A stretch of 64,000 nt of DNA from Candidatus Brocadiia bacterium (GTDB lineage: Bacteria; Planctomycetota; Brocadiia; SM23-32), in assembly GCA_046538485.1 (NCBI GenBank), contig JBKHIT010000001.1, positions 96,001-160,000 on the forward strand. Reading direction: 5' to 3'. Within the stretch, counting starts at the first letter, position 1, and every line of letters starts with the position of its first letter. Under the pieces are notes generated by a model. The model had not been told where the DNA came from. It saw only the letters and a list, made by a program, of their open reading frames with translations, and did not search any database. Made by a program: the position numbers and the translations under genes. Below are positions 29,707 to 32,457 of this stretch, one piece after another.

Positions 29707-32457
29707 TCAGGGGACAATCCGTTCGTCATCCCACAGCAGGCTGTAATGGTCCCAGTTTTTCGCAGACGAGTAGGGATCCCAGGAGTATCCCCAGCCGCCC
29801 CAGGGCGGGGCTTTCAGAAAGAATGCTGAGCCACCCCGTCGCAGAATGGTTATGCCGCGATCCCCATGGGGCAACGGTGTATTACCGTCCACACGGCAGG
29901 CGTTCAGCGGCCACCACGGAATGGGCAGACGACGGCTCTTTTGTTTCGCTCCGCCGCTGCCGTGACCGGTACTGTAAACCGCTGGAACGTGGTAGCAATA
30001 ACCGGCCTGGCGGTTACCCCAGTATCCGGTCCGCGAGTACTTACCGGCAGGGCAATATTGCATCTCAAATCGGACATAATTTCCCAGCAAACCGAAACCT
30101 TTGGGGTTATCCGGATTCCCATGCAATCGTCTATCGCAGAGCCAGTGATAATTATCCGGCAGATACGATTCGTTATCCTCCGCATAGAACATGATACCCA
30201 GGAAAATCTGTTTCTGTTGATTCAGGCAGACGGTCGTTTTCGCCGCCTCCCGCGCCCGCTCCAGCGCCGGCATAAGCATCGCAGCGAGAATGGCGATGAT
30301 CGCAATGACCACCAGCAGTACTATTAGAAGGAAGCCTCTGCGTGTTGCGGCAATCGGCTTCCTCCCACAGTCCAAACCGTGCGTGTGGTTCTCCCCCACA
30401 CGGCTCTCCACGCTGTAATTTCGCGCACAGCATTCGTCACAGTAGGTGAGGTCCATATTCAAGACCCTTCTCATAGAAGAAACTGTTCGGCCAGCGGCGG
30501 TATCCGACAATATCCTTGCGAGCACGGCGACGACGCAGAAATAAGCGAAGTTGCTGACACGCATAACTCGTCAGCTCCCGAGCGGCCTCGTAGGAATTGC
30601 CAATACGAAAATAATTCGCCCATCCCCGCAGCTTGCGGTTCAGGACCGCTATGGCCTCCATAAGGGGCTCGCCGAGTGGTATTTTCTTCACCCGCTCTTT
30701 GATTCCGGCTCGCGCCTTCTTCATACTTTTTGCTCGAGGGAACTTGATTCTCACATGCCGACGTCTCTCTCGGGAGTAGGCCTCCTTGTAAGTGAAGCCA
30801 AGGAAGTCAAATCCCTCCCGCACGTGGACCAATGAGGTCTTCGCGCGGTTGAGCATCAGATGCATCTGCTCCAGCATGTGCCGGGCGACTTTCAATGCCT
30901 GCTCGGCCTGCTGGGGACTGTCACAGAGAATCACCATGTCATCAGCAAACCGAACGAGCTTGCCGTTGTCGTCGTTCCACCTCCGGTCAAATTCATTGAG
31001 AAAGATGTTGCTCAGTAGCGGCGATATAACGCCGCCCTGAGGCGCCCCGACCTTCGTGGGGCTGACAAGGCCGTTCTCCATGACTCCTGCCTTGAGCCAT
31101 CGGCGAATGAGGTGCAGGACCCTTTTGTCGGTCACACGCCTTCTCACAAACTCCATAAGAAGCTCATGATTAATCGTGTCGAAGTAGCTCTTGAGATCAA
31201 GATCTACGACCCACTTGTGTCTGTTGGTTCGCCTATGCACCAGCTCCGCCGCCTCTGTGTTGCTGCGTTGTGGTCGGAAACCATATGAACACTCACAAAA
31301 GTCCGCTTCGAACAGGGGTTCAATCACCAGCTTCACCGCCATTTGAACCACCCGATCCTTCACTATAGGAATTCCGAGTGGCCGCTTGCTGTTCCAGCCC
31401 TTTTGGATATAGCACCGCAGGACCGGTAAAGGGTTGTAAGTCCCCGCTCGTAGCTCCTTCTGAATCTCTAAGAGGAACTCAACGGCTCCCTCCTCCTTGA
31501 TCTGTTCGATGGTCACTCCGTCCACCCCGCTGCTTCCAGCGTTACGGGCGACTCTCCGCCATGCCTCTTGCAGAATATCATAGCCGCACACCTTATCAAA
31601 CAATAGACCAAAACGTCTACCACTGCTGTTCTTGGCTGCTCCGTAGAGCTTCCGCTGCAAGGACCTGACCCACTCTTGCGACGAGATGTATATAGCCTTT
31701 TCGGCATTCATCTCAGGTCTACTCCTTACCTCGAAAACGTTTACAGGTTAATGGCCCTTTGCTACGGGCGTTTCTGCTGAGCGCCCGATCCTTGCTACTA
31801 TGACCATCTCCGACTCCCGTCGTGGCATCAGTACGGTCTTCAGCATCTCGCCTTGCCCCGCCACTTATCCTCCCGACGCCTCTCGTGCGCTTTGACCGTG
31901 GGCGGACGTCTGCCCATTGGCCAGGTTGTTTGGGGCCGGGACAACCCATGTGTTGTTCTAACCCGGAATCTTGGTCGGAACCACGACGGTCCTCCCCAGT
32001 TGCTCCAGTAAACTGTCCACACATACCGCCTCCTTTTACACCGCCGGCCGAGTGGTTGCTCTCTCCCATTTTCTTCACCACTCGCATCGGACTTCTCCTA
32101 TCGAACGGAGGATCGTCTCAACCGGATCACCTGACTCTGTCAGCAACCGCCGTCAGGCTACCTTTACGATGCCTACGGATGTTCGTTTTCCTACGGTCTA
32201 TGCGTTTGCCTGGCCGCTCGGACTGACTTTGAGTCCCCGCCCCAAATGGAACGGTTTCCCGTCTGGCGACTTTGTCACTGCGCGTCGGGGTCTCCCCCGG
32301 CAGTCAGACTACGTGTCCGAAATGAGAAATTGACACGACTGGGACTCTCGCCCAGCCAGCTTACCCAGCCTTACCTGGGCACACATTCAATGAGCGTAAA
32401 CCCCGTTCGGCAATAAGAGGTAATCCGTTTATTTTTCCGTCGCGTTCTGATAACCAA
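29707..32457 (-). CDS. Prepilin-type N-methylation/DUF1559-like protein interrupted by a group II intron (exon 1 32385-32457, exon 2 29707-30317; 227 aa spliced)
   Basis: Joining the exons gives [51 protein letters not shown]. Lengths 73+611=684 nt, in frame. AGGAGA lies upstream of TTG 32457. Confidence 0.9.
30318..32384 (-). mobile_element. Complete group II intron
   Basis: 5' end GTGTG, 3' end ..AGTAC. Domain V GAGCCGTGTG..CACGGTTT (30373-30408). Domain VI stem GGGAGGAAGCC/GGCTTCCTTCT with a bulged A. RT ORF inside; precise removal restores the host ORF. Confidence 0.95.
30437..31711 (-). CDS. ltrA: Group II intron reverse transcriptase/maturase (no endonuclease domain)
   Basis: [55 protein letters not shown] and [12 protein letters not shown] (domain X); 424 aa. 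Confidence 0.95.

Follow-up and report, generated by a model that had tools for sequence, protein, structure and literature searches.

According to one published account, bacterial group II introns mostly avoid genes: most lie in intergenic or mobile DNA and recognise a single sequence with high specificity (PMC12584367). The mobile introns described there carry a reverse transcriptase (RT)/maturase open reading frame (ORF) in domain IV, and loops of domain I, the exon-binding sites (EBS), pair with the end of the 5′ exon, EBS1 covarying with its partner, intron-binding site 1 (IBS1); the closest concept in that account is that of the IIB1 introns found at start and stop codons (PMC12584367). 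Here, we describe an intron lineage found in a 64,000-nt stretch of the genome of a Candidatus Brocadiia bacterium (contig JBKHIT010000001.1, positions 96,001-160,000; hereafter the window). It resembles those mobile introns in all three respects, and its general mechanism is ordinary for group II introns; unlike the introns of that account, however, it lies inside a coding motif shared by more than 100 paralogues, many synonymous spellings of which are matched via G-U pairs, and a whole codon separates its candidate IBS2 from its IBS1. The motif, F-T-L-I-E-L, is the start of the mature prepilin-type protein, and the lineage lives inside genes with a conserved protein motif as its address. We consider it likely that this is a mobile group II intron lineage specialised on that motif, with an EBS1 that reads by wobble and a spare leader in domain VI.

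Coordinates below are positions in the window, and its features lie on the minus strand. The stretch from 32457 to 29707 is a prepilin-type gene split by one intron. The 5′ exon (32385..32457) has a TTG start codon, preceded at 9 nt by AGGAGA, extends to base 1 of a Leu codon and encodes ..RTGFTLIE plus a T; it ends in GGG TTT ACG CTC ATT GAA T, of which TTTACG CTC ATTGAAT occupies 32400..32385, with GTGTG next. The intron (30318..32384; 2067 nt) has this GTGTG at its 5′ end and TAGTAC at its 3′ end, and the 3′ exon (29707..30317) opens with TG, bases 2 and 3 of the same Leu codon, followed by CTG GTG GTC. The intron thus splits the Leu codon that follows F-T-L-I-E behind its first base; the insertion is 24 codons downstream of the start codon and falls within codon 6 of the mature protein. 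In the 3′ exon, base +1, a T of Leu, is invariant. Joining the exons in silico (32385 to 30317) gives an open frame of 227 aa, the N-terminus of which is collinear, across the junction, with two neighbouring paralogues. Both paralogues match PF07963 (Pfam), and the one scanned against NCBIfam (32516..33394) matches TIGR02532 and, weakly, TIGR04294; the 3′ exon by itself gave no Pfam match. The host gene shows the G-F-x-x-x-E motif followed by a hydrophobic helix that marks the prepilin-type N-terminal cleavage/methylation region (PF07963/TIGR02532).

The intron-encoded protein (424 aa; 30437..31711) is a reverse transcriptase and maturase (Pfam RVT_1, 1.6e-41; GIIM, 3.7e-11) that scores 415 bits against NCBIfam TIGR04416 (cutoff 300), and the Pfam and NCBIfam scans found no endonuclease domain in it; the closest solved chains are 7uim (group II RT) and 6ar1 (GsI-IIC RT). 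Domain V (D5; 30374..30406) is conserved in homologues and is matched by RF00029: in a permissive Rfam scan the full model (1-77) aligned to 30408..30318 with 33.6 bits (E 3.8e-4), below its gathering score of 40, and at gathering score there were no Rfam matches across the whole window, RF02001 reaching 18.1 against a gathering score of 32. Domain VI (D6; 30318..30373) folds into an extended hairpin from which one A, 30325 or 30324, bulges (-8/-7; minimum free energy -27.4 kcal/mol, z -5.96), and a hairpin with one bulged A at -7/-8 was found in all eight copies folded (z-scores -1.1 to -7.4). The element thus combines a GUGYG-type 5′ end, a D5 hairpin, a D6 with its bulged A, an RT and maturase ORF, covariation between EBS1 and IBS1 (see below) and a host frame that is restored by joining the exons; these features mark it as an RT/maturase-encoding group II intron.

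Its subgroup is less easily named. Introns of subgroup IIC are not known to have an EBS2. They are described as inserting after terminator or attC hairpins through short EBS-IBS pairings (PMC12584367). Although the RT is nearest to solved IIC-type RTs, the present intron departs from that description, with a coding motif as its target, an EBS1 of 7 bp and about 670 nt of RNA 5′ of the ORF. The IIB1 lineage, as characterised in the same account, inserts in or next to initiation or termination codons and has an insertion of 300-700 nt near the 5′ end of domain I (PMC12584367); here, the insertion is 24 codons past the start codon, and the first 100 aligned columns of 12 copies hold no such insertion.

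A reading made from the window's letters alone (hereafter the sequence-only reading) had proposed that the loop GUUCGAU (32106..32100), in a hairpin with the stem CUCC (32110..32107)/GGAG (32098..32095), is EBS1 and pairs with the last seven exon nucleotides, ATTGAAT (IBS1; 32385..32391), a stretch made up of the Ile codon, the Glu codon and base 1 of the Leu codon. Letters and pairing are as that reading had them: the GTTCGAT/ATTGAAT duplex has seven pairs, two of which are G-U wobbles, at the third base of the Ile codon and the first base of the Leu codon. On a single sequence, the EBS matches are within chance: a full partner of ATTGAAT, by Watson-Crick and G-U pairs, arises in 21% of 640-base shuffles. 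Since the matches in one sequence are not beyond chance, the case rests on the comparison of copies. In an RNAalifold consensus of nine homologues, computed without an imposed structure, the EBS1 segment is the loop of a terminal hairpin (32095..32110) with a covarying stem. In an alignment of 12 copies, from exon to loop, IBS1 and EBS1 are paired in 98.8% of cells, as against 31-46% when the partners are slid, and three of the seven positions show compensatory double changes, the copies concerned being L150, where GCUCGAU faces AUCGAGC, L208, where GUUCGAC faces GUCGAGC of an FTLVE site, and L209, where GUUCUAU faces a site that ends in UAGAGC. The sole mismatch in this alignment is in L168B, with GUUCAAU at AUAGAAC. 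On this comparison the identity of EBS1 as the GUUCGAU loop can be regarded as settled; the fold does not place it elsewhere, and homologous introns do not carry unrelated EBS sequences.

A six-frame scan of the genome found 144 FTLIE motifs, eight of them with a single C or T and then GTGTGC directly behind; uninterrupted copies of F-T-L-I-E-L number about 125. The eight are the intron 5′ ends of the family in this genome, all placed one base behind FTLIE: one is the window copy, contig C20 has two, and the other five are at ends of contigs C38, C42, C49, C54 and C56. At the occupied sites, six spellings of the final seven exon bases occur: ATTGAAT, ATTGAGT, ATTGAAC, ATCGAAC (three times), ATTGAGC and ATCGAGC. 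Five more contig ends (C99, C118, C138, C140 and C143) open with 48-54 nt of the same intron 3′ terminus, and each continues into a different full-length paralogue (232-305 aa). Occupancy of different paralogues by several copies is an indirect sign of past mobility. The synonymous positions of the site face G, U and G, so that C/U and A/G alternatives all pair (AUY GAR Y), as the sequence-only reading had it. GUUCGAU can pair over its full 7 nt with all eight occupied sites and with 88 of 130 unoccupied prepilin-like sites (23 of the 88 entirely by Watson-Crick pairs; 88 of 125 if the five intron-borne copies among the 130 are set aside), that is, with 96 of 138 motif sites. Among 12 Watson-Crick complements of synonymous spellings it covers the most sites, the next best covering 44. 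The sites with an ATA Ile codon (41 of the 130) are not covered, and none of the eight occupied sites has ATA.

Homologous introns were found in two genomes of the phylum (G024 and G076), in a public genome record (L011) and in metagenome loci. The intron was present in one of 60 other genomes in a search of relatives and in one of 400 in a search of the phylum. Metagenomes were scanned with a 16-mer, and 197 of 207 loci (L011 upward) were compared with the intron by BLAST; among the matches listed, at least seven metagenome loci besides L011 carry the family (L131, L091, L095, L150, L168, L190 and L200), and the remaining 16-mer matches are probably due to chance. Ten copies elsewhere are at the same codon position (L002, L011, L131, L091, L095, L150, L168B, L200B, L208 and L209), and all 5′ junctions elsewhere come after F-T-L-(I/V)-E plus one base. 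Over these ten copies and the eight here the last seven exon bases have eight spellings, so the view that the intron recognises the F-T-L-I-E-L motif across divergent paralogues is borne out by every copy. Among distant RT relatives (27-56% identity; L012-L088), none has FTLIE followed by GTGYG, and the habit of using this motif is therefore confined to a close clade. At the metagenome locus L168, two introns of the family stand in tandem; the first carries an ORF, and the second, which is ORF-less, has a large insertion (about 100 nt) in domain I and the EBS1 GUUCAAU. In L168 and L200, the second intron comes directly after the ...AATAGAAC or ...AATCGAAC of the first (..AAUAGAAC or ..AAUCGAAC), which indicates that the junction of intron and 3′ exon rebuilds the target site.

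The second exon-binding site is less uniform. The sequence-only reading had placed EBS2 at CGTAAAGG (32168..32161), within a hairpin GTAGGC..GCCTGAC, and had paired it with the Phe-Thr codons TTTACG (IBS2 candidate; 32395..32400), the Leu codon CTC (32394..32392) being an unpaired spacer. The complementarity stands: CGUAAA (32168..32163) is a perfect 6-bp Watson-Crick complement of UUUACG in the window copy and in L011, and the same register gives five of six pairs in L131, L095, L168B and L208. The hairpin was rejected, CCUGAC (32157..32152) being taken by a covarying helix with the downstream GUCAGG (32135..32130). This hairpin (32130..32157), just 3′ of the EBS2 segment, is paired in 96-100% of cells and has 3-4 compensatory pairs, and the EBS2 candidate is thereby left in the single-stranded stretch AUCGUAAAGGUA; the segment that contains it, AUCGUAAAGGUAG (32158..32170), is unpaired in the RNAalifold consensus. 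The CGUAAA segment stands about 55 nt to the 5′ side of EBS1, the part of domain I in which an EBS2 is expected. The register varies between homologues: the CGUAAA register is paired in 81.5-81.7% of cells and a neighbouring one in 72.2%, the latter with perfect pairing (6/6) in L095 (GGUAAA with UUUACC) and L150 (GGUGAA with UUCACC), including one compensatory change. Both registers use the same exon bases, and the Leu codon is thus skipped in either, as had been claimed. On these alignments, EBS2 would lie within the 32158..32170 segment, would be variable and would contribute less than EBS1.

Copy numbers were gauged from contigs of the source run aligned to the window, where single-copy depth is about 24-34; among the sequencing runs listed as containing this stretch, none was an RNA run. 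An ORF-less form, represented by a contig that joins window position 31655 to 30409, has a depth of 119, or about five copies; an internally deleted form (contigs C20 and C120), in which 30753 is joined to 32066, has a depth of 56. The only RT of this lineage in the assembly is that of the window copy, other RTs being at most 40% identical to it, and this one autonomous element probably serves the approximately five ORF-less copies in trans. Degenerate copies at C20 82316..83239 (locus L003) and C120 50..565 share an internal deletion that joins about 340 nt of domain I to the last 108 RT codons. In the copy C20a, D5 is split by a palindromic insert and an ORF of the D6 loop, MREWKAGKRLGFTLIE, runs into unrelated sequence and not into a prepilin exon. 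The suggestion that the five-copy form shares the CGCAGGAGG of C20a was withdrawn, the high-depth contig over 32121..32288 having 12 differences and no gaps relative to the window and C20a having 18 differences and one gap. Three further group II-type RTs in the genome (C99 8594..9769, C120 7485..8456 and C113 35705..36511) are 34-40% identical to the window RT, and none of the three is at an FTLIE site.

A further feature of the family is what the 3′ strand of D6 spells in the frame of the 3′ exon. In all nine intron 3′ ends it reads xxxF(T/S/L)LI(E/V), with FTLIE in seven, FSLIE in L150 and FLLIV in the window copy, the D6 3′ strand of which (30342..30319) reads RRGFLLIV where relatives carry RRGFTLIE. 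With the window copy left out, the pairwise differences in the FTLIE codons are 41 synonymous against seven nonsynonymous, and the 5′ strand has changed in a compensatory manner that keeps the helix. The Leu codon reads YTA throughout and, with the first A of the Ile codon, supplies the branch-site A. Arg-Arg-Gly precedes the motif in five copies, with the Arg codons spelled CGC/CGG and AGA/CGA/CGC. The D6 lengths of the six short forms (53, 56, 56, 68, 68 and 74 nt) are all 2 modulo 3, and in all six the exon frame can be followed back through D6 and D5 for 61-108 codons without a stop. Over the 165-210 nt before GFTLIE, the exon frame has no stop in any of the six introns and each of the 12 other frames has at least one; the probability of such a stop-free exon frame in shuffles is 0.02-0.08 per intron. 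Moreover, the ORF-less introns of L150, L095 and L168B, which have different deletions, have the Shine-Dalgarno sequence and ATG of the RT in the exon frame, 77, 85 and 69 codons upstream of the junction, respectively. In L011 and C20a, a D6 loop of about 150 nt has GGAGG and an ATG, with leaders of 10-11 residues. The five-copy form reads MRLWRRGFTLIE, and from its RT ATG to the Leu codon there are 216 nt, in frame, an estimate from contig coordinates in which the 68 intervening nt could contain stops. Prepilin-type proteins are cleaved between G and F, and the mature protein would thus be the same with or without splicing. From these frames, the intron appears to carry a spare leader and a cleavage motif. 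The enlarged D6 loops also have in common a conserved TTGACT, a run of 9-10 T and then TATAAT or TATACT (L011 2255..2285; C20 83118..83140; L131, last 30 nt, reverse complement); the TTGACT...TATAAT spacer is 13 nt, which is not sigma-70 spacing.

Several observations weigh against the proposal of a motif-specialised lineage with a wobble-reading EBS1, and two of its parts have rival readings at the exon-binding sites. The fit of EBS1 by wobble could be incidental, GUUCGAU being the Watson-Crick complement of an ancestral ATCGAAC and G-U pairs being tolerated, as in any group II intron. ATCGAAC, of which GUUCGAU is the exact complement, is indeed the commonest occupied spelling (three of eight here, plus L131, L095 and L200B), L150, L208 and L209 have retargeted their EBS1 to their own sites by ordinary Watson-Crick changes, and G or U would fall at all three degenerate positions by chance about once in 8 (or once in 12 on a different count). 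The description of EBS1 as "tuned" to codon degeneracy is thus an inference: GUUCGAU covers 96 sites and none of the other 11 complements more than 44, yet selection for degeneracy is unproven. What argues against an incidental fit, besides coverage, is that GUUCGAU is kept in eight of the 12 aligned copies, which lie in seven different spellings; seven of these eight have a complete IBS1, and five of the seven have at least one G-U pair. We regard the incidental fit as a real, if doubtful, possibility. A further difficulty is that the 88 sites able to pair are unoccupied, two of them lying no more than 2.1 kb from the intron: that of the neighbouring paralogue (33318..33334; TTTACC CTT ATTGAGT) is fully pairable with EBS1, and that of the next one (34440..34456; TTTACA CTT ATCGAAC) is a perfect Watson-Crick match to it. 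Either EBS1 pairing is insufficient, then, or mobility is rare. For EBS2, the pairing is inconsistent, at 72-82% of cells, and the true site may not be CGUAAA: the neighbouring GGUAA/GGUGAA register could be the real one, as the perfect pairing of L095 and L150 with its compensatory change would suggest, or the lineage could use EBS1 and the +1 base alone. The degenerate copies C20a and G024 have CGCAGGAGG at the EBS2 position and form at most three pairs, the Phe-Thr codons of occupied sites come in six spellings (TTTACG, TTTACT, TTCACT, TTCACG, TTCACA and TTCACC), and six places in the first 640 nt of the intron can pair with TTTACG, at least one such place being present in 96% of shuffles. 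The perfect partner in the window copy and L011, the five of six pairs in four other copies and the single-stranded position of CGUAAA at the expected distance from EBS1 speak for it, and we find the alternatives to CGUAAA unlikely.

The FTLIE of D6, in turn, may act at the level of nucleic acid only and never be translated, either as a mimic of the 5′ exon that keeps the junction a homing site, a safe place to land from which tandem arrays arise, or as a frozen relic of exon capture. Another intron comes directly after two of the nine intron 3′ ends (L168 and L200), several copies have no nearby start codon (L168A, L168B and L200A have none inside the D6 loop), and the coding strand is locked in the D6 helix. 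Further points count against a translated leader: the window copy is degenerate in this respect, with FLLIV and with ATT where the multi-copy form has ATG; the leaders that the long open frames imply have about 45-85 aa as against about 6-17 aa in natural ones; a scan for sigma-70 promoters in the D6 loop inserts (L011 and C20a) gave no sites; and the frame statistics are not fully independent, since the copies are related. A role in nucleic acid alone, however, sits poorly with the codons themselves: in four of nine copies Ile is spelled ATA, a mismatch to the G of EBS1, and in three Phe is spelled TTC, a mismatch to CGUAAA, changes that are silent for the protein and harmful to a mimic. Likewise, Arg-Arg stands before the Gly in five copies with different codons, the six D6 lengths are all 2 modulo 3, the stop-free exon frame reaches far beyond any mimic, and the RT start codon has stayed in frame through three different ORF deletions. 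To us an untranslated D6 motif seems improbable.

Under the proposal of a lineage specialised on F-T-L-I-E-L, one intron RNA would retrohome into most paralogues through G-U pairs, with the sites that spell Ile as ATA escaping, and EBS2 (CGUAAA in the single strand of the window copy) would add pairing with the Phe-Thr codons in some lineages only. The RT of the window copy would act in trans on the approximately five ORF-less copies. A D6-borne leader and cleavage motif would yield the same mature protein when splicing does not occur, and the D6 copy of the motif would recreate the homing site as a by-product. Taken further, the lineage could be self-complementing: the 3′ part of domain IV together with domains V and VI would form an ORF for a disposable leader ending in R-R-G/F-T-L-I-E, in frame with the 3′ exon, so that prepilin peptidase, cutting at G/F, would release an identical mature protein whether or not the intron was spliced. 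ORF-less forms would reuse the ribosome-binding site and start codon of the RT, the rebuilt homing site would let introns stack with no new damage, and, together with the wobble-reading EBS1, a whole paralogous family could be colonised at almost no cost. This extension we advance tentatively, as an idea that may well be right but that we would not yet favour.

Preservation of a host gene product has been described for the IIB1 groEL intron, which replaces the stop codon UAA by UAG on insertion and which, like the present lineage, also occurs in tandem (PMC12584367). Unlike in that case, as it is described there, the insertion here is within the coding region, what is preserved is an N-terminal leader together with five codons, borne by domains V-VI, in place of a stop codon, the 300-700 nt 5′-subterminal insertion is lacking and tandems form at the 3′ end of the resident intron, whereas in groEL they form between the 5′ exon and the intron (PMC12584367). 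The dnaN and RIR introns of Trichodesmium offer another parallel, with one full-length RT copy and several ORF-less relatives in the same genome (PMC12584367); the targets there are different sites in two housekeeping genes, whereas here they are paralogues of one gene family that share a motif, and the service in trans is here a proposal. In full-text literature searches, no paper came up that connects group II introns to prepilin-type genes or describes the reading of synonymous codons by EBS1. Homing endonucleases of group I introns and inteins tolerate variation at third codon positions in conserved coding targets. They resemble the present lineage in being selfish elements that, in effect, recognise a protein motif despite synonymous variation; the reader there is a protein, whereas here it would be an RNA loop that uses G-U wobble much as an anticodon does.

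Three features would cut the cost of insertion and widen the range of the lineage, namely the synonymous-reading G and U of EBS1, the never-varying +1 base and the intron-borne, in-frame copy of the motif. If the spare leader is real, the catalytic core domains V and VI are also coding sequence and insertion is phenotypically silent; this would be a new answer to how mobile introns invade coding regions and would bear on ideas of how early spliceosomal introns spread. Multi-target targetrons might also be designed with this natural use of wobble in mind.

Many contig ends of the assembly fall into families of shared terminal repeats, one with 38 ends, which points to a genome rich in other dispersed repeats besides the intron. 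In the window itself, at about 42767..42800 on the minus strand, an intergenic sequence reads ..GGA TTC AGC CTG ATT GAG C, with GTGTGTCCCA next; translated, it gives G-F-S-L-I-E, after which come a single base and a GTGTG like that of an intron start. Downstream there is neither an intron body nor a 3′ exon of prepilin type, and the next gene starts about 80 nt further on. This relic is probably the stump of an intron-interrupted paralogue.

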